Assembly (NCBI GenBank): GCA_003150395.1
Contig: QAMI01000059.1
Coordinates: forward strand, 2,719 to 66,718
Reading direction: 5' to 3'
Origin: Candidatus Gastranaerophilales bacterium
GTDB lineage: Bacteria > Cyanobacteriota > Vampirovibrionia > Gastranaerophilales > Gastranaerophilaceae
DNA: 64,000 nucleotides
The notes under the pieces are model-generated. The model made no database searches. It worked only from the letters and a program-made list of their open reading frames with translations, and was not told where the DNA came from. Position numbers and translations under genes: made by a program. Below, one piece after another: positions 3,480-59,332 of the stretch (position 1 is its first letter; each line of letters starts with the position of its first letter).

Positions 3480-4115
3480 TTAATTGTTATTTTGGTTTTG
3501 GTTTGCTTCTTTTTTAACAGTTTCTCTTACAACAGATGTTGTTCTCAAATATGATTTTTCAAGTTCGCCTTTAACGCTTACTTTACCGTCAGCCGCTACA
3601 TAAATCGAATATCTGTCAGGGGTTTTGCAGTCCTGAGTACCAGATTTGCAATTAGGAGCTTTATCGCCGTTAATGTCAACCATGATTTCTGCTTCTGTTG
3701 CAAATGAAGTATTTGGCATATAATATGCTACGCTGTCATTTGTTGTAAAGCTTATTGTTCCATTACCGTTGCAAGTGATAGTGTCATCTTCGATTGTGTT
3801 CATCTTCATTGCGAATAGCTGGCAGAATTTAGTGTTGCCGCTGTATGAAGTGTCATTAAGTGTTACTGCTGTTGTGTTATCTAAGCCTTGATATTTTGTT
3901 CCGTCATCTTTTGATGCTTCCGGATAAAGATAGTCGTCGTTAACAAGTTCTGTTACAACCCGCTCTACATTTGTATAAGCTTTTTTAAACATCATTTTTT
4001 GTCTGTCAGGCTGGATTTGGTTAATTGCCGGCAGGATTAATGATGCTATAACCCCAACAATTGCCAATGCTACCAGAATTTCGCCTAAACTGAATGCTGC
4101 TTTTCTATTTTTCAT
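3480..4115 (-). CDS. Type IV pilin-like / pseudopilin protein
   Basis: MKNRKAA|FSLGEILVALAIVGVIASLILP (E at +5, hydrophobic helix). VDINGDKAPN motif is shared with the other pilin-like genes here. Confidence 0.8.
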   Translation of the reverse strand: MKNRKAAFSLGEILVALAIVGVIASLILPAINQIQPDRQKMMFKKAYTNVERVVTELVNDDYLYPEASKDDGTKYQGLDNTTAVTLNDTSYSGNTKFCQLFAMKMNTIEDDTITCNGNGTISFTTNDSVAYYMPNTSFATEAEIMVDINGDKAPNCKSGTQDCKTPDRYSIYVAADGKVSVKGELEKSYLRTTSVVRETVKKEANQNQNNN

Positions 4116-4308: not shown

Positions 4309-5175
4309 ATGTTTAGGAAAATGAAGGGTATTACAATAGCAGAAATGATGATAACCCTGGGGATTATCGGCATCATTGCAATGCTGGCTCTTATTACCAT
4401 AAAACCTTATGACAAAACTTATAAATGGCTGTATGTAAGAATTTATCATACGCTTGAAACCGCAGTGTATAATTCTATGATGGCTAGGGATAAATTCCCG
4501 GAGAGCACTACAGCTTTTTGTACAATGCTCACAGAATATATGAATGTCTCTGAAAATTATTGTACTACCGGGAATGATTTAAGCATAAATGCAACAGAAT
4601 TTCCGGAAGCAGATATAAAACTTGTTGCAAGCAACGGTATGAGATTATGGATAGCTTCGAATGGCGGGACATATTATACACACACAAACACTCAGGTTGA
4701 CGGGGCTCCGGCAAATATGAAATATTATGTAGTATTTGCGGATCTTAACGGTTCAAAAGGTCCAAACAAAGCTCAATGGACTGATGAGGGAAACTTGGGG
4801 TGGACTTCTGATAGCAAAATGGTTGATATTGTAGCTTTTGTAGTGACAGAAGCTTCTGTTGTGATTCCTATCGGACCTCCGGAAATAGATACCAGATATA
4901 TGCTGGCGTCTGCAATCTATCCGCCGGATGATGAGAATAAGCCTGAAGGTACACGCTCTAAACCAATGTCTTATTATGAGGCAAAATATGATGCCTTTGG
5001 CAGCAGCAAATCTTTAGCAGAACCAATGTCTCTTGACTTTTATAAAGATTTTGCAACAAATAGCCCGTTTGCAATAACTTATCCTGAGCCTGGCAGTGCC
5101 AATGTTGCTGAAGGATGTACTGATGGCGGTAATTTAGTTTCACCTTGTTATGTAAAAATTGAAGAATATAACTAA
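4309..5175 (+). CDS. Type IV pilin-like / pseudopilin protein
   Basis: MFRKMKG|ITIAEMMITLGIIGIIAMLAL; ADLNGSKGPN motif; divergent from 3480..4115. Confidence 0.75.
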   Translation: MFRKMKGITIAEMMITLGIIGIIAMLALITIKPYDKTYKWLYVRIYHTLETAVYNSMMARDKFPESTTAFCTMLTEYMNVSENYCTTGNDLSINATEFPEADIKLVASNGMRLWIASNGGTYYTHTNTQVDGAPANMKYYVVFADLNGSKGPNKAQWTDEGNLGWTSDSKMVDIVAFVVTEASVVIPIGPPEIDTRYMLASAIYPPDDENKPEGTRSKPMSYYEAKYDAFGSSKSLAEPMSLDFYKDFATNSPFAITYPEPGSANVAEGCTDGGNLVSPCYVKIEEYN

Positions 5176-12969: not shown

Positions 12970-13748
12970 ATGTCAAAAACACAAGTTATTATTGGATTTA
13001 ACGGGGGGGGGGGCACCCGGAAAACAGCTCCTTAAAGCCTTTTAAAATCAATGCTTTTACTCTTGCCGAAGTTCTTGTAACTCTGGGAATTATCGGGGTA
13101 ATTGCAGCAATGACTCTTCCGTCTGTTATTAATAAGGCGGAAAAAATGATTTTAAAAAACCAATTCAAGAAAACATATTCAACATTTTCGCAAGCATTGC
13201 TTAAATCCGAAGCTGATTATGGTGCAAAACCAGCATGTTATTATCTGACATCATCAAATTCTTCTGTATCCGGACTTATCTCAAGCCAGTATCTTGATGT
13301 AGAATGCAATGTTTTAAAAACACTTTTTCTGAAAAATTTGAATGTAATTGCAACTTGCGAAGATAATGCATACCCGACCTGCATACCAAAATATAAAGGT
13401 TTTGATACCATGGCGATTGAGAATAATCCAGACTTATCAGAAGAAGAAGCTTTAGAGATAGTCAGGGGGCAGTCGGGTTTCAAGCAGAATAATATTTTAT
13501 ACAAAGCACCTGCATACGTTTTGTCAGACGGTAGTATAATTTTGAGTTATGCCTCGGCATCCTTTCCTAAAATATTTGCAATAGATATTAACGGCAAAAA
13601 AGGACCAAACAAATGGGGGCATGACCTGTTTTCTTTCTGGATTGGAAGTAATGAAAAATCTAATATTATCCTTCTCGGAACAACTTATCTGGTTGAAAAA
13701 GGCGGTGTTACATCAAGAAAAATGATACAAGATGTTCTTAAAAAATAA
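12970..13748 (+). CDS. Type IV pilin-like protein, frameshifted at a G11 tract in the leader region (candidate phase-variable gene, OFF as sequenced)
   Basis: AAGGAG (12959-12964) then ATG 12970 gives MSKTQVIIGFN-G11. The frame as sequenced stops at TAA 13033. The other frame reads HPENSSLKPFKINA|FTLAEVLVTLGIIGVIAAMTLP and runs into track ORF 13110..13748. That frame has no canonical start between TAA 12999 and FTLAE. Confidence 0.75.
13003..13013. repeat. Homopolymer G11
   Basis: Counted directly: 13003-13013 are all G. Confidence 0.95.
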
Positions 13749-38460: not shown

Positions 38461-39038
38461 ACATTTTCCCCTTTAAAGATTGCTTCTTCTACCAACGCGC
38501 AAATTATATGACCAATCATTATGTGCGCTTCCTGAATTGTCGGTGTGCTTTCGGACGGTACTTTTATTATATAATCACAAAGTGTATCCATTTCGCAAGC
38601 TTTTTGACCGACGAGTCCAATAGTTGTTACATTTTTCTTTTTGGCTTCAAGGATAGCTTTTACAATATTTTTGGAATTTCCAGAAGTTGATATTGCAATA
38701 AAAACATCTCCTTCATTTGCATTTGCCTGAATTTGTCGGGAAAAAGAATTTTCATAACCGTAGTCATTTCCGATTGCAGTTAAAATTGAAGTATCGGTTG
38801 CAAGAGAAAATGCACTCAAACCAGGTCTATCAAAAAAGAATTTTGAAACGAGTTCCCCTGCAATATGCTGAGCGTCTCCGGCTGAGCCCCCATTGCCCGC
38901 TGTTAAAACCTTTTTGCCGTTAATATAGGCTTCTACAATAACATTGGCTGATTTTTGAATTGTTTTAAGTAAGTTGTTATCATTTAATATTTCTTGCTTT
39001 GTTTTTATTGATGCCTCAATGTAGTTTTCTATGAACAT
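38433..39038 (-). CDS. gmhA: Phosphoheptose isomerase (SIS domain)
   Basis: GNGGSAGDAQHIAGEL, TAIGNDYGYE, ISTSGNSKN. ATG 39038 is preceded by AAGGAG; the track ORF starts at 39086. Confidence 0.85.
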   Translation of the reverse strand: MFIENYIEASIKTKQEILNDNNLLKTIQKSANVIVEAYINGKKVLTAGNGGSAGDAQHIAGELVSKFFFDRPGLSAFSLATDTSILTAIGNDYGYENSFSRQIQANANEGDVFIAISTSGNSKNIVKAILEAKKKNVTTIGLVGQKACEMDTLCDYIIKVPSESTPTIQEAHIMIGHIICALVEEAIFKGENVCLSGQKLH

Positions 39039-40098
39039 TTTAATAGGTCTCCTTTGTTTTGAAACTTGCCTAAAACGATTGGACAATATTTTTCTAATAT
39101 TTTAATTGTGTAGTAGTTTATAAGCAATAGTATGAATGTGAATATTATTAAAAATATTAGTTTTAGGATTATATTTGGAAAGTAATTTATTATTTGTGTA
39201 TTCAAAATTCGTAGAGGAAAAAGCAGTAACTCATGAAAAAATATTATAAATAATGTATTTTTTGCTATAGTTTTTATAAATTCATTTTCATCGCAGAAAA
39301 ATTTAGAAATTATACATATCATATATGTTCCGATTATGCCACCTAAATATGATAAAAACAAGGATTGATTTTGAATATTTTTATTAGGAAGACTCATTTC
39401 TATCACTCCGTTATGTGAAAGTATATTTTCTAATAGTAAATAACTAATTATAACCCCCCCCCCCCAGCTCTAAGCCCTTTTTTAGTATAGCTTTTCAGCA
39501 TATAGCCAAAAGTGAAATAAGGTACCGCCATTAGAGTATTATCAAGGCAAAAATATAAATTTATATTATTTATAAATAAAAATTTACATATAAATATTGC
39601 TGAAATGTTTAACAAAACTAAATTTCTAATATTTAAATTTATATTATTAAATAGTAATCTAAGTTGTATGATTGTCATTATAAACCAGCATGGCGCGCAA
39701 TTTGGTATTGAAATAGGTGTACTAGAAGCATCTCCAAGAATTGCTCCACTGACAATTCCTAATATTTTATATCCTAAATAAGGTTTTATTAGAAACAAAT
39801 ACCAAGCTTTAAAAGGTAAGTATATAATCTGGTAAATTAAATAAGGAATTAAAAGTCCATATAAAATTTTTTTATAGTTATCAGTTTTTGTTTTTGATTT
39901 ATATAAATACCCTGCCATAATAAAGAATAAAGGCATATGAAATAGATAGATAAAATCCCATAGATGTGAGAAAAATGTAGAATTTTTTAGAAGTCCAAAT
40001 GGCGATAATGTATGCCCAAAGACTACCAAAAATATTCCAATAAACTTTGCAATATCTACCCAAACAATATTTCTATTTTCAATAATATTTTCAGACAA
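39029..40098 (-). CDS. Acyltransferase-3 (OafA/YrhL-like) membrane O-acyltransferase, split by a G12 tract (candidate phase-variable gene, OFF as sequenced)
   Basis: Track ORFs 39448..40098 (N-terminus NRNIVWVDIAKFIGIFLVVFGH) and 39029..39406 are both polytopic. Together they equal one acyltransferase of about 350 aa. The second frame is open back through the tract. Confidence 0.8.
39454..39465. repeat. Homopolymer C12 on + strand (G12 in the gene sense)
   Basis: Counted directly. Confidence 0.95.
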
Positions 40099-53157: not shown

Positions 53158-53640
53158 ATGACAGATAAAAAATGCCCTTATTGTGGTGATATAATTAGTG
53201 ATACTGATAATGTATGTCCTAAATGTGGTGAAAACCTAATACTAAAATGTCCTTTCTGCAAGGAAGAAATTAAAGCCTATGAAGTGGTGTGTCCGCATTG
53301 TACTTCTAAACTTCGCGGACGTAAAGAGCCAAAGTCCCTTTTTTATATAGGCTATGCGTTGGCTGCTGTATGGGGAATTATAAACTTACTGTTCTTGTGG
53401 GCTGCTGCGCATTTTCCTGAAATAATAACTGCAAAAGATAAAGACGGCATGCTCGTATTACCGCTTTCATCATATATGCAGTTAACTTTGCAGCCAATGA
53501 TATTCATTTCAATCCCTTACATAATGGCAGCCGTTAAAAAATATAAAATACCACTTGCAGTCATTTGTATGATAATCAACCTGATTTTAGGAATCGGCTT
53601 TTTAAGTTATTTCATACATCTTCAATATATATATCTTTAA
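53158..53640 (+). CDS. Double zinc-ribbon membrane protein
   Basis: CPYCG...CPKCG and CPFCK...CPHC, followed by 3-4 TM segments. Confidence 0.65.
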   Translation: MTDKKCPYCGDIISDTDNVCPKCGENLILKCPFCKEEIKAYEVVCPHCTSKLRGRKEPKSLFYIGYALAAVWGIINLLFLWAAAHFPEIITAKDKDGMLVLPLSSYMQLTLQPMIFISIPYIMAAVKKYKIPLAVICMIINLILGIGFLSYFIHLQYIYL

Positions 53641-53668
53641 AAAAAAAGCTCCCTTTTGGGAGCTTTTA
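53641..53668. terminator. Bidirectional intrinsic terminator
   Basis: AAAAAAAGCTCCC-tttt-GGGAGCTTTT between convergent genes. Confidence 0.8.
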
Positions 53669-53669
53669 G

Positions 53670-54489
53670 TTATTTAAGCATTTCTTCAAACATTTGTTTT
53701 CCGGTTTTACCACCCTTTTCGGTTGCGTAAGTAATAGGAACTAAGCTAGTTATACCGTTTACATTATCCCCCTTCAACTGGAAGGTAAACATATCATATC
53801 CCCATTTATTCGGGTTTTTATGACCATTGATGTCAATGGTGAATAATGGTGTTGTGGAGCTATACCCAAGTATAATAGTTCCGTCCGCTAAAACCCACGC
53901 CGGCCACTTTTCTTTAATGTTTTTGTCGCTAAACCCACTATTCGGGTCTGGGTTTGCTTCTGGATTGTTTTCAAGTTTTACCTTATCAACGCCTTTGTGC
54001 TTATTTGTAATACAACCTTTCTCAAGTGCTTTATTCTGACAATATGTTGCAACATTCAGTGTCTTGAATAGTTGTTCTCTGAATATTTTACATTCATTCA
54101 TGCCACCGTTATAATCTGATGGAAGAGATGAACCATCAGGCATTGACCATTTATTACAGTTACCATATTCGTTACGGTTGGTGCAGGTTGCGGCGGGGTA
54201 TGGTGAGTTTGCCCAGTAGAAACAATTAATCGGCGCTTCATTTTTTGCCTGAACCAATTTTATTCCATTAAAAAGGATGTTGTAAGCTTTTTTGTACTGG
54301 TTTTTCAAAATCATGTTTTGTGCTTTGTTAATGACTGAAGGTAAGGTCATCGCAGCTATAATTCCGATAATCCCAAGTGTGATTAAAACCTCTGATAATG
54401 TAAACCCTTTTGAAAAATGGTTAAAACCATTGCTATGACTGAATTCTACGGGGGGGGGGGCAGCCCATAATTCCTATTCCTCTAAGCAT
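53670..54489 (-). CDS. Type IV pilin-like protein, frameshifted at a C11 tract in the leader region (candidate phase-variable gene, OFF as sequenced)
   Basis: AGGAGG (rc of 54495-54500) then ATG 54489 gives MLRGIGIMGC-C11. The frame as sequenced ends RRIQS*. The other frame reads VEFSHSNGFNHFSKG|FTLSEVLITLGIIGIIAAMTLP and runs into track ORF 53670..54350. That frame has no canonical start upstream of FTLSE. Confidence 0.75.
54450..54460. repeat. Homopolymer G11 on + strand (C11 in the gene sense)
   Basis: Counted directly. Confidence 0.95.
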
Positions 54490-54535
54490 TTTTACCTCCT
54501 GTATTTTTGAATAGTGCATGCTAATGATATCATTT

Positions 54536-55663
54536 CTACATATTTTTATCAAGTCTAATTCCTTCCGCATTTGCCAAAAACTCCATAACATTTATAACTT
54601 TCGGGTGTTTTTTGTGTAAAACTCCGGCAGCTGCAAATCCTTGTAAAATTCCTAAAACACAGGCCGGGCAGGTTGTTAAAACAATATCAGCCCCGGTTTG
54701 CAGAATATTTTTAGCTTTTCTTTGGGAGATTTCAGCAGAAAGTTTTGGATTTTTCAATGCAAATTCTCCTGCAAACCCGCAGCATTCGTCAAAATCTTTC
54801 ATTTCAATATATTCAACATTTTCGCATTTTTCTAATAGCGTTTTTATAAAATTTGCGTTTTCAAGATGACAAGGTTTGTGAAAAGTGACTTTTAAGTTTT
54901 TTTTGAAACTAAATCTAACATTTTGTGTTGTCGCAAATTCACCGGCATTAATAAACCTTGGTTTGTATTCTGTATTTTTAAAATATCCTTTCAAAGTGCT
55001 TTCACAGCTTGCGCAATCGGTTAAAATGTAATCAAATTCACAATCCAGAAGTTGAAGATTTCGGTTTTTGACTTGCTTAAAACGTTCCAAATTCCCGCTT
55101 GAAAGAAACGGCAGGCCGCAGCATTCAAAATCTTTTTCAATAACTTCAACATCCATATTTGAAAAAACCTTCTTTAAATCGTTTTCAACTTTTGGCGCTA
55201 TGTTGTTCACACAGCCTTTAAAGTAGAGAAGCTTTGTTTTTGGGGTGTTGTTGTTTGACGCGGATATGGAATTTAATTTTTGTCTTAGTCCGAAGTTAGT
55301 CAAAGATTTAACAAGCTTTATAAAATTCCCGAAAATTAAATCTGATTCTAAAAATTTTTCAAGTTTACCGTGAAAAGTATTTTTGGCGTATTCATATTTT
55401 GCCGTGTTAAATATTTCACAGACATCAATACTGCTCGGGCAAAAGTTTTTGCATTTACCGCATTTAAGACACATGTCCAGATATTTTTCGATATTTTTGC
55501 TGAGTTTTAAATCACCTTTAAGAATTCCGTCGAGCATAACGAATTTGCCGCGGGAAACAGCACAATCGTTGCCTGTAATTTTATAAACCGGGCAGACAGA
55601 TTGGCAAAGTCCGCATTTTGAACATTTGTTAATTTCATCGGCAAAATCTTGAAGTTTTTTCAT
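54536..55663 (-). CDS. (Fe-S)-binding oxidoreductase subunit, GlcF/GlpC-like (2x[4Fe-4S] plus 2 CCG domains)
   Basis: CSKCGLCQSVCP, CLKCGKCKNFCP, CCGLPF, CCGFAG. Confidence 0.75.
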   Translation of the reverse strand: MKKLQDFADEINKCSKCGLCQSVCPVYKITGNDCAVSRGKFVMLDGILKGDLKLSKNIEKYLDMCLKCGKCKNFCPSSIDVCEIFNTAKYEYAKNTFHGKLEKFLESDLIFGNFIKLVKSLTNFGLRQKLNSISASNNNTPKTKLLYFKGCVNNIAPKVENDLKKVFSNMDVEVIEKDFECCGLPFLSSGNLERFKQVKNRNLQLLDCEFDYILTDCASCESTLKGYFKNTEYKPRFINAGEFATTQNVRFSFKKNLKVTFHKPCHLENANFIKTLLEKCENVEYIEMKDFDECCGFAGEFALKNPKLSAEISQRKAKNILQTGADIVLTTCPACVLGILQGFAAAGVLHKKHPKVINVMEFLANAEGIRLDKNM

Positions 55664-55681
55664 ACATAAATGATAACATAA

Positions 55682-56380
55682 TTACCACGGATAATCATCT
55701 CTGATTTCCCAGCCATCTGCCATAATCAACCCTAAACAAAATGCACCGTTTGTATCGCCGGCTTCTTTTCTACAACCATATCTTTGTGATTTAATAATTT
55801 CATTTCTGTCAAATTTTGAATATCCGCCAATATCGGATGTCCCTTTATAACCAAAAGGAACAAGGCCGTAGTCTTTAGATATAACAATCGCAAAAAAATC
55901 TTTTCCAAATTTGTTTGGCTTTTTATATCCGTTTAAATCAATACAGATAATCTTAAAAGGAAGATATGAGTACTGCTGGGTATTACTTAAATAAAATGTT
56001 GTTCCGTCAACAGTGCTTACAATCAGTGCTTCGGAGTAAAATGGAGTAAATGTATTTTCAATAGTTCCATTTGGCCTTGTATATTGAATTTTATCAGATA
56101 TTTTCCCATAAGATGTCATATTAATTGTTTTTAATTGAGGTTTTATATATTGATTAAAAAATTCAGCAGACGTCTGATTATAATTCCAATATGTCAGATT
56201 TTCGTTTTTTAGCTCAGAAAGTTCTATTGCCTGAGATAATATTGAATAAACTTTTTTTAATTGGTTTATTGTCTGAATTTTTTGATATTTCCCGATTAAC
56301 GCAGGTAGCGTTATAGCCGCAACAATTCCGATAATACCTAATGTTATTAAAACTTCTGGCATGGTGAATGCTTTTTTCAT
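55682..56380 (-). CDS. Type IV pilin-like protein
   Basis: MKKA|FTMPEVLITLGIIGIVAAITLP; IDLNGYKKPNKFGKDFF. The C-terminus YGCRKEAGDTNGAFCLGLIMADGWEIRDDYPW parallels 58634..59332. Confidence 0.85.
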   Translation of the reverse strand: MKKAFTMPEVLITLGIIGIVAAITLPALIGKYQKIQTINQLKKVYSILSQAIELSELKNENLTYWNYNQTSAEFFNQYIKPQLKTINMTSYGKISDKIQYTRPNGTIENTFTPFYSEALIVSTVDGTTFYLSNTQQYSYLPFKIICIDLNGYKKPNKFGKDFFAIVISKDYGLVPFGYKGTSDIGGYSKFDRNEIIKSQRYGCRKEAGDTNGAFCLGLIMADGWEIRDDYPW

Positions 56381-56524
56381 AAAAATCCTCTTTATTATAA
56401 TTTAAATATCTAACGAATGCGTTAATTATTACATTTATTCGTTCATTTGTCAATGAAGTTTTGAATTTATTTAATGAAAATTTAATTTAAAAGTAAAATG
56501 TTAAACGTATGAATGGAGCATTAA

Positions 56525-56740
56525 ATGATTATAAATGATTTAAAAAAAGTTTTACTAGACGTAAATATTTCATTGACCGAGTTAGCTGATGCGCTTGGAA
56601 AACGTTTAAATAAACATTATTCTTTAAATAATCTTTCAAACAAACTCCGCAACGAAACGATTACGCATCGTGAAATGATTATAATTGCAGATATTTTGGG
56701 GTATGATTTAAAATTTGTAAGGCGCAAAGAAAATCGTTAA
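56525..56740 (+). CDS. Small putative helix-turn-helix protein
   Basis: 71 aa. [12 protein letters not shown]...LSNKL resembles an HTH. Weak call. Confidence 0.35.
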
Positions 56741-58494: not shown

Positions 58495-58545
58495 ATGAAA
58501 AAGCGCACTATGACTGAATTGCCGGGGGGGGGGGGCATCCGCTAA
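58495..58545 (+). CDS. Upstream mini-ORF containing a G12 tract (MKKRTMTELPGGGGIR*); becomes the start of the downstream pilin at G11
   Basis: AAGGAG (58481-58486), 8-nt spacer, ATG 58495, stop TAA 58543. With one G fewer, the frame continues without a stop into MKKG|FTLAEV. Confidence 0.5.
   Translation: MKKRTMTELPGGGGIR
58524..58535. repeat. Homopolymer G12
   Basis: Counted directly. Confidence 0.95.
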
Positions 58546-58633
58546 TAGCACTCCTCACAGTTTTTTACGTATCTTGTGTATTGCTCATAATAATAATAAA
58601 ATGCTTAATGTATTAGGTGACATAAAGGGCGAT

Positions 58634-59332
58634 ATGAAAAAAGGTTTTACATTAGCGGAAGTTTTAATAACTCTTGGTGTCATCGGAATTATTGCAGCAA
58701 TGACTTTTCCAATGATGATTACCAAATATCAAAAACAGGTTACAGTTGAGCGTCTAAAGAAATTTTATTCTGTCATGCAAAATGCTATCAGGCTTTCTGA
58801 AGCTGATAATGGAGAAATGGCAGATTGGGATTTCCCTAAAGATACCTATGACAGAAATATGAAGACATTTTTTGACAGATATTACAGACCTTACTTGAAA
58901 GATTCTCAGGAATGCAGTAAGTCCTTATGTTTTAAACATGAAAAATATGATATTTATTACTTGAATGGGAAACCTGCTGGAGGAATTTATTCTGATAATT
59001 ATATAGTTAAGTTGAATGATGGGATGTATGTTTATTTTCTTCCAAATACTCCGGCAGCTTATATTTGGATGTTTGTTGACATAAACGGGCATCAGAAGCC
59101 AAACACCATAGGAAGGGACATTTTTGTTTTTGATATATATAGTTATCCTGCAAGGGCTCAACGCAAAAATTATCACATGAAATTCTGGGGTGAATACGAT
59201 AAAGATGATGGAAAATTAACTGACAGTAATGATTATGGCTGCAACAAGTCAGCATCTAGATATTCAGGTTTTAAATGCGGTGAATTAATCTTACGAAGCG
59301 GCTGGAAAATCCCCAAAAATTACCCCTGGTAG
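58634..59332 (+). CDS. Type IV pilin-like protein
   Basis: MKKG|FTLAEVLITLGVIGIIAAMTFP; VDINGHQKPNTIGRDIF; C-terminus YGCNKSASRYSGFKCGELILRSGWKIPKNYPW. There is only a weak SD (AAGGG) before ATG 58634. Confidence 0.85.
   Translation: MKKGFTLAEVLITLGVIGIIAAMTFPMMITKYQKQVTVERLKKFYSVMQNAIRLSEADNGEMADWDFPKDTYDRNMKTFFDRYYRPYLKDSQECSKSLCFKHEKYDIYYLNGKPAGGIYSDNYIVKLNDGMYVYFLPNTPAAYIWMFVDINGHQKPNTIGRDIFVFDIYSYPARAQRKNYHMKFWGEYDKDDGKLTDSNDYGCNKSASRYSGFKCGELILRSGWKIPKNYPW

Follow-up and report, generated by a model that had tools for sequence, protein, structure and literature searches.

In bacteria known for their phasomes, such as Campylobacter jejuni, Helicobacter pylori, Haemophilus and Neisseria, repeat tracts usually reside in the ordinary coding sequence or in the promoter of unrelated genes. 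Homopolymers are also known to separate two reading frames that are joined for the full product, as in insertion sequence (IS) transposases, dnaX and Shigella mxiE/spa, where the runs are short, consist of A or T, and are fixed in length and direction. Among pilins, type IVb/Tad prepilins carry, together with the G↓F-x-x-x-E motif, leaders that far exceed the 6-7 residues found in type IVa pilins. A G/C homopolymer in a pilus context is found in pilC1 and pilC2 of gonococci and meningococci, in which a poly-G tract (G 9-20, classed as 'genic') lies within the region coding for the signal peptide, and frameshifts reversibly turn the gene ON or OFF and thereby alter piliation (PMC13017665, PMC5953494). 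Here we describe a pilin-like gene, gene 2, on the minus strand of a 64,000-nucleotide (nt) stretch of a Candidatus Gastranaerophilales bacterium (contig QAMI01000059.1), from a non-photosynthetic lineage related to cyanobacteria, in which a run of eleven C residues separates a translated leader from the prepilin frame. Among the housekeeping genes of this whole stretch, referred to as the window, seven pilin-like genes are dispersed, and two of these, gene 1 and gene 3, are compared with gene 2 below. We consider it probable that gene 2 undergoes slipped-strand phase-variable translation, gated by its poly-C tract, and that it is OFF in this strain. It combines a repeat tract inside a translated 5' region, a frameshift that decides between a full-length and a truncated product, the absence of a bypassing start, and length polymorphism of the tract.

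The gene 2 locus and its reading frames

Read in order on the minus strand of positions 53600-54700, the locus presents a promoter-like site, a Shine-Dalgarno (SD) sequence, an ATG, a leader, C11, the residues RRIQS and a TAG. Its features (aa, amino acids) are as follows:

54524-54552, minus strand: promoter-like site TTGATA-17 nt-TATCAT with an extended -10 TG, a consensus match only, at 10 of 12 positions
54495-54500, minus strand: SD sequence AGGAGG, 5 nt before the gene 2 leader ATG
54487-54489, minus strand: leader start ATG, with a further in-frame ATG at 54468-54466
54450-54460, minus strand: poly-C tract, C11 as sequenced (G11 on the plus strand); at C10 or C13 leader and prepilin frame become continuous
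54433-54435, minus strand: TAG closing the 18-aa peptide MLRGIGIMGCPPPRRIQS in the sequenced (OFF) phase, in which the frame reads PPPRRIQS and then stops
54405-54449, minus strand: post-tract leader in the prepilin frame, VEFSHSNGFNHFSKG, with Gly(-1) as last residue and no start codon
54339-54404, minus strand: prepilin cleavage/methylation motif and hydrophobic N-terminal helix, FTLSEVLITLGIIGIIAAMTLP (Pfam N_methyl, TIGR02532)
53670-54404, minus strand: mature pilin-like protein, 244 aa plus stop, with a predicted helix and a predicted beta-rich, Cys-rich head; family motif DINGHKxPNKWGYD
53644-53667, minus strand: intrinsic terminator hairpin followed by a T run, immediately 3' of the gene 2 stop codon

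The minus strand sequence agrees with the preliminary description of this locus, which had reported AGGAGG, the ATG at 54489, a leader reading MLRGIGIMGC, C11, and an end after RRIQS. From its ATG the leader covers nine codons (peptide sequence MLRGIGIMGCPPPVEFSH...) and then enters the poly-C tract. The prepilin frame, VEFSHSNGFNHFSKG continued by FTLSEVLITLGIIGIIAAMTLPSVINKAQ... with the junction SKG↓FTLSEVL, is one base out of phase with this leader and ends at TAA 53672-53670. It had been proposed that this frame has no canonical start, and indeed no ATG, GTG, TTG, CTG or ATN codon is present between its upstream TAG and F1 of FTLSE. The first ATG in the frame lies at 54350 (MTLPSV...), and the resulting 226-aa open reading frame (ORF; 53670-54350) lacks both the signal and the hydrophobic helix. 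As no start codon belongs to the prepilin frame itself, gene 2 is OFF at C11. When the tract was varied in silico from C8 to C14, a protein of 272 aa resulted at C10 and one of 273 aa at C13, all other lengths giving peptides of 13-19 aa, which reproduces the predicted ON states. A run of this length is not expected by chance: the window has a G+C content of 34%, and G/C runs of at least 11 bases were seen in 0 of 100 dinucleotide-preserving shuffles, yet they occur at four loci (13003, 39454, 54450 and 58524).

In the mechanism that we propose, the strong SD and ATG would start a nine-codon leader that runs into the tract. At C10 or C13 the ribosome would pass through 15 more leader codons into G↓FTLSEVL..., giving a prepilin of 272-273 aa from which a prepilin peptidase presumably removes the 28-aa leader, after which the product may be incorporated into a pilus or pseudopilus. 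At C11 translation would instead stop after 18 codons, leaving the gene OFF. Slipped-strand mispairing at replication would change the tract by plus or minus one base at some rate, and switching is likely to be reversible. The selective agent could be host antibody, phage, or the choice among many alternative pilins.

Two other roles of the leader region were considered and rejected. Folding of the gene 2 leader RNA is weaker than that of shuffled sequences (z = +2.57), with no stimulatory structure, and no Rfam family reached threshold, the sub-threshold matches falling on the terminator hairpin only; weak folding and the absence of an Rfam family together speak against SD sequestration or a riboswitch-like structure. 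The residues IMGC before the prolines might be taken for a lipoprotein signal, but the segment is not long enough for one, and its Cys arises simply from the junction of G and C, as other leaders with a C tract on the coding strand (C-type) read RIAPPP.

The protein reconstructed from gene 2 scores 27.9 bits against PF07963 (N_methyl; cut-off 21.2) and 25.6 bits against TIGR02532 (cut-off 16.3), and shows the cleavage/methylation motif G↓F(M)xxxE followed by a hydrophobic helix of about 20 residues. Against the NCBIfam equivalogs GspG, GspH, ComGC/D/E/F and PilA it remains far below all cut-offs (ComGE 29.2 versus 49; GspG 22.2 versus 88.85), and these matches span the N-terminal helix only; judged by such profiles, gene 2 is assigned to no named pilin type. 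Neither gene 1 nor gene 2 matches Pfam DUF6613 (PF20318) at E <= 0.01. In the window this family is found in gene 3 (47.9 bits) and at 55682-56380 (32.6 bits), and since a few gene 2 homologues carry it as well, the two are neighbouring families. An AlphaFold model of the mature part (pLDDT 90.7) predicts a 53-residue N-terminal helix (3-55) and then a beta-rich head, which is consistent with the general pilin layout. Gene 2 has about a thousand homologues, and those that are labelled, together with nearly all species-representative loci, belong to Candidatus Gastranaerophilales / Melainabacteria; the collection of Gastranaerophilales species genomes contains at least 578 pilin-like stretches.

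Compared with the sister lineage (L004; dS ~0.5), the mature part of gene 2 has a dN/dS of 0.15-0.16, and the post-tract leader, compared with orthologues, an omega of 0.6-1.05, which is close to neutral. The 244-codon mature frame is unbroken in all strains examined, and the SD, ATG, leader frame and terminator are conserved. These substitution rates and intact frames indicate that the mature part is under purifying selection and that gene 2 is not a decaying pseudogene. Between the window and the closer contig L011, the mature part shows a dN/dS of 0.78, with 31 non-synonymous versus 10 synonymous changes; this value may reflect recent diversification by selection in the exposed head domain, or recombination there.

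Tract length between strains and across the lineage

Two contigs, L022 and L023, match the window at every position over 20.3 and 9.8 kb (100% identity); they are therefore the same strain and no independent samples. In a sister lineage with ~88% DNA identity to the window, ~30 contigs, obtained from many samples with various assemblers, agree fully in SD, leader and flanks, and the gene 2 tract is found as C10 (L025, L026), C11 (most) and C12 (L012, L013, L027). L011, which encodes protein P0001, also has C10 at gene 2. Among the 29 homopolymer runs in the 6.8 kb shared by the strain panel, which include A8 and T8, the gene 2 tract is the sole variable run. Furthermore, proteins with the full leader in the ON form have been catalogued for gene 2 (P0125, P0129, P0138 and P0001), P0138 being the ON form of the window-type leader. 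In L024, a strain 97% identical, C11 is kept at gene 2 and gene 3 reads G11, not G12. Nine further tract-bearing clusters hold ON and OFF forms side by side, as well as in-frame +3 variants (GGGG versus GGGGG).

A single mature allele is listed as proteins of 272 aa (MLRGIGFIGCPPPVKF..., ON), 265 aa and 226 aa, all in one 90% cluster. Many of the differences between 226 and 265 aa are gene-caller choices for one C11 state and not differences of the tract, because the sister lineage has a TTG in frame at C11: contigs L001-L010 carry TTG at ATTTATTGGCTGCC, where the window has TGG. Escape through a TTG start therefore does not apply to the window. The suggestion that an unconventional start might suffice to express the downstream frame thus fails for the window, and is possible for L001-L010 of the sister lineage. 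Gene callers split or truncate these genes, as the three lengths obtained from one allele illustrate, and pilin repertoires derived from metagenomes are therefore systematically mis-annotated.

Two side observations concern the tract and its surroundings. In three independent assemblies (L016, L017 and L028), runs of N fall exactly within the poly-C tract; such scaffold gaps are suggestive of mixed tract lengths in the samples or of coverage loss at the run. In addition, several proteins (P0056, P0113, P0051, P0060, P0061 and P0236) and contigs L001-L010 have a second start beside the tract in another phase, from which MAAPPPV..., MRGGGN... or MPPPR..., for example, would result. A prepilin could then arise from two of the three phases, which may allow three expression states, or these starts may be gene-caller artefacts.

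The arrangement recurs throughout the lineage. We analysed 73 usable homologous loci from Gastranaerophilales species genomes, seeking the tract within 400 nt upstream of FTLxE, and found a G/C tract of at least 8 bases (range 8-13, mostly 10-12) in 37 of the 73 genes. The density of such tracts upstream of FTLxE is 1.24 per kb, compared with 0.037 per kb in 353 kb of flanks, a 34-fold enrichment. Of 39 tract-bearing loci, 36 have a strong SD and an ATG on the 5' side of the tract, in most of them at a distance of 21-34 nt. The interval between tract and FTLxE, with a mean of 42 codons, is free of stops in the pilin frame at 36 of 42 loci, whereas composition predicts 9 such loci and the other two frames show 0 and 1. 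Moreover, no canonical start follows the tract at 15 of 33 loci. With the pilin frame open from the tract onwards and no later start at these 15 loci, translation therefore enters these pilin genes through the tract.

ON-type leaders, defined by a Gly/Pro run in the first 25 residues, head 24 different 90% clusters and range in length from 14 to ~200 residues. In the long leaders, the genuine AFTLAEVLITLG is often preceded, at a distance of a few dozen residues, by an incomplete copy of a pilin N-terminus (AFTLAEGATHVA... or GFTLAEVFS...), as in P0024, P0034, P0040, P0043, P0070, P0085, P0107, P0108, P0111 and P0119. Such copies may have been left by recombination among pilin genes, or may represent a repeated element located upstream of them.

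Weighing the alternatives

Several results weigh against phase-variable translation of gene 2. Only one of 32 scorable genes of the species genomes is in frame as sequenced; an unbiased simple switch would give about one third ON, and this count therefore speaks against it. Of the same genes, 24 need exactly one additional nt, typically having G10 with ON at G11. C11 is strongly modal in both gene 2 lineages, and the window's own allele is C11 in 4 of 4 contigs. The strain panel was gathered by exact-protein look-ups, which biases the tract states and makes their frequencies only rough (a look-up with P0002 gave only C11 contigs, an ascertainment artefact), and the tract differences between samples derive from metagenomes assembled from Illumina data, where long runs of G/C are prone to error. 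With regard to the protein, Foldseek returned no solved structure with E below 0.9 for the gene 2 head, and neither pilus machinery nor a prepilin peptidase is present among the scanned ORFs of the 64-kb window; pilA-D and pilT have been reported for Ca. Gastranaerophilus termiticola from the termite gut (PMC5877343).

So what accounts for the deficit of ON forms, which make up ~2-25% of the contigs per strain cluster? Selection for OFF, mutational bias, recoding, or a preference of assemblies for shorter runs may each contribute. We infer that most variable pilins are held off in most cells, one step from ON, perhaps assisted by a mutational preference for tracts of ~10 bases. The rarity of ON in natural samples poses a testable question, namely what selection in the gut holds these genes in the OFF state.

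This deficit prompts the main rival, programmed recoding. Homopolymer runs of such length are slippery for polymerases as well as ribosomes, and slippage of either (+1/-1 on CCC/GGG, perhaps with stalling on poly-Pro/poly-Gly) could restore the frame in some products, so that OFF would be the normal state of low expression and changes in DNA length would be secondary. This would fit the dominance of out-of-frame genes and the single phase shared by 24 of the 32, G10 needing +1, as well as C11 being modal in more than 20 independent gene 2 assemblies and the low ON share in other clusters. However, loci differ in the shift that they would need. A correction in the opposite sense is called for at seven loci as well as at gene 2 and gene 3, and one direction of recoding therefore cannot serve all. 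In addition, ON alleles with a complete leader (C10, G11, G12) exist at the DNA level in every cluster examined, tract length differs between strains, and the leader, as its weak folding indicates, has no stimulatory RNA structure. We therefore hold recoding to be improbable as the main explanation. A true tract of C10 miscalled by sequencing or assembly, with an intact gene, is very improbable. Long G/C homopolymers are difficult for Illumina and assemblers, and three scaffolds break in the tract, but C11 recurs in more than 20 contigs that come from separate studies and were assembled differently (MEGAHIT, SPAdes, Logan), and C10 or C12 was obtained in others; a uniform miscall of +1 or -1 cannot mend both the loci that need +1 and those that need -1, and the other homopolymers of the panel are invariant. 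Even if the length were miscalled, the 11-base C run that is kept at this position in many genes would need explaining.

The homopolymer frameshift could also have silenced a redundant pilin paralogue that is now decaying, as might be suggested by the gene being out of frame as sequenced, by the presence of seven pilin-like genes in the window, and by the elevated dN/dS between the window and L011. Given the intact mature frame in all strains, the low dN/dS at greater depth, the conserved SD, ATG, leader frame and terminator, the existence of ON alleles, and a leader frame that is open at 36 of 42 loci, such decay is still less probable than a miscall. Least probable of all is a transcriptional form of phase variation, in which the tract would set promoter spacing or act at the DNA or RNA level and the short ORF would be irrelevant. 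A TAGAAT hexamer directly follows the gene 2 tract, a TATAAT follows the G12 at 39454, and the motif flanking the tract is conserved in both orientations, which would fit a DNA-level element. The best promoter-like site of gene 2, however, lies inside the 3' end of the upstream Fe-S/CCG gene, 5' of the SD, with a spacer that excludes the tract, and the tract as promoter spacer was ruled out at gene 2 on this ground; such sites are no more numerous in the region than in shuffles, and the hexamer has no -35-like partner at the right distance. Neither the conserved SD and ATG 21-34 nt before the tract nor the open pilin frame would have a role in a promoter, and the 15 of 33 loci without a start codon after the tract argue in the same direction. 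Phase-variable translation through the tract thus remains our preferred reading of gene 2.

Related cassettes and comparison with known systems

The other tracts of the window, and a motif on the strand opposite gene 2, are the following:

12970-13748, plus strand: gene 1, a paralogue, whose G-type cassette reads AAGGAG-ATG-10 codons-G11 (13003-13013); ON at G9/G12, OFF as sequenced
58495-59332, plus strand: gene 3, DUF6613-type and pilin-like, whose G-type cassette has G12 at 58524-58535; joined at G11 or G14
39029-40098, minus strand: Acyl_transf_3 gene split by G12 (39454-39465); OFF as sequenced, 355-356 aa at G10/G13
54435-54445, plus strand: ATGACTGAATT, abutting the gene 2 tract and identical to the leader-ORF motif of G-type cassettes in gene 3 (58510-58520) and L078

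Gene 1 had been described as a close paralogue of gene 2. The two do belong to the same family and share the motifs listed for them, but they are not close: their mature proteins are 47% identical, with 76% in the first 45 residues (the N-terminal helix), 16% in the centre, and ~57% in the surroundings of DINGxKxPNKWG. The orthologue cluster of gene 1 contains both ON and OFF forms, and orthologue leaders of 115 aa. In gene 3, an internal ATG at 58634 provides a classical leader, MKKG↓FTL, and the tract may therefore adjust expression instead of acting as a strict gate. At G12, as in the window, gene 3 has a short upstream ORF, whereas at G11 in L024 (about 8590, on its reverse strand) the leader is joined to the pilin.

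In the homologous leaders, the coding-strand tract consists of G, encoding Gly, in ~31 cases (G-type) and of C, encoding Pro, in ~7 cases including gene 2. Alignment of the gene 1 and gene 2 leaders gives a score of -3 in the same orientation and of 18 with one of them reverse-complemented. Likewise, all seven C-type cassettes score positively against a G-type profile (24 nt on each side of the tract) only when inverted, with summed scores of +41.8 versus -90.0 bits. These flank profiles indicate that, in evolutionary terms, the C-type cassette is an inverted G-type cassette, and ATGACTGAATT opposite the gene 2 tract looks like a relic of it. That the C-type flanks match the G-type only when inverted argues that it is the DNA element that is conserved and not the encoded Pro or Gly. 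This strengthens the proposal of the preliminary description that selection acts on the tract itself and not on the peptide, for which C10, C11 and C12 with identical flanks, the ON proteins, and the near-neutral leader also speak. An active invertible switch was rejected, the orientation being constant in ~30 gene 2 contigs.

Reverse-complementing the SD AAGGAGC gives the motif that follows the tract in G-type cassettes (TTAAGCTCCTTAA and variants), in which the OFF-frame stops lie; examples are found in the window at 13023-13033 (AGCTCCTTAAA) and in L051, L052 and L105. An anti-SD-like GCTCCTT follows the tract in many G-type cassettes, including that of gene 1. A role as anti-SD or as inversion-symmetric element may be considered for this motif.

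The Acyl_transf_3 gene, with TATAAT directly 3' of its G12, is located in a low-GC polysaccharide locus with a nucleotidyl transferase, an SIS-domain protein and a Wzy-type ligase. By analogy, the tract-bearing genes of the window, from two pilin families and Acyl_transf_3, would make a typical gene set for a contingency-locus repertoire. The remaining pilin-like genes have classical leaders. The DUF6613 gene at 55682-56380 has an MKKA↓FTM leader, no tract, and an adjoining 71-aa ORF (56525-56740). The insert from 55682 to 56740, between ilvD and the Fe-S/CCG gene, varies in presence or absence among close strains (L001-L005 and L024 versus L006, L015, L022 and L023). Three more pilin-like genes with short classical leaders are found at the start of the window, beside an OEP efflux gene (1953, minus strand; 3480-4115, minus strand; 4309-5175, plus strand). 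Their N-terminal helices diverge (GFSLVEMM, AFSLGEIL and GITIAEMM), and they may represent a different pilus or pseudopilus set.

It is tempting to go one step further and regard the succession of SD, ATG, leader, tract and stop motif as a transferable switch cassette. Through duplication, recombination or insertion it would have spread, in either orientation, before about half of hundreds of Gastranaerophilales pilin-like genes, each tract tuned to ~G10, one step short of ON, so that every cell shows few pilins, possibly including expression by slippage in the OFF state. We regard this extension as doubtful. If true, an uncultured lineage allied to the cyanobacteria would vary its pilin repertoire by homopolymers, and not by gene conversion or inversion.

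How, then, does gene 2 relate to the systems described so far? With Neisseria pilC it shares a G/C homopolymer in a 5' region coding for an export signal, in a pilus context. However, PilC, a large adhesin associated with the tip, has a Sec-type signal; it is not a pilin and has no homology to gene 2. In gene 2 the tract is located in an N-terminal extension before a class III signal, the cassette is present on about half of a large paralogous family and in both orientations, and the host belongs to an uncultured lineage of gut commensals instead of being a pathogen. The phasomes of C. jejuni, H. pylori, Haemophilus and Neisseria resemble the present case in having several G/C tracts of ~8-13 bases in genes for surface structures, variable between strains (PMC5953494). 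They differ from that of the Gastranaerophilales, in which a modular leader (SD, ATG, 7-11 codons, tract and stop-rich motif) stands before paralogous pilins, leaders extend from 14 to more than 150 residues, and ON states are unusually rare in assemblies. Compared with type IVb/Tad prepilins, the 28-aa leader of gene 2 in its ON form is within the range of lengths, but there is no sequence relation beyond the N-terminal motif, and the leader is not conserved as a peptide (omega ~1); it would seem to exist in order to carry the tract. Leaders of more than 100 aa, as in the gene 1 orthologues, are to our knowledge outside anything described for prepilins. From slippage-dependent genes such as dnaX, the gene 2 type is set apart by its G/C runs, by a length that varies between strains, and by the opposite corrections needed among loci.

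Searches of full texts for Gastranaerophilales or Melainabacteria in combination with phase variation, homopolymeric or phase-variable gave nothing relevant. The proposed core mechanism is ordinary, classical slipped-strand phase variation; the lineage, the position of the tract before a class III signal peptide, and the modular cassette on about half of a family in both orientations appear to be undescribed so far. Gastranaerophilales are widespread and uncultured in human and animal guts, and their interactions with hosts, phages and other microbes are almost uncharted. If our reading is true, these commensals share the bet-hedging logic of Neisseria and Campylobacter, and apply it to pilin subunits by means of a reusable leader cassette.

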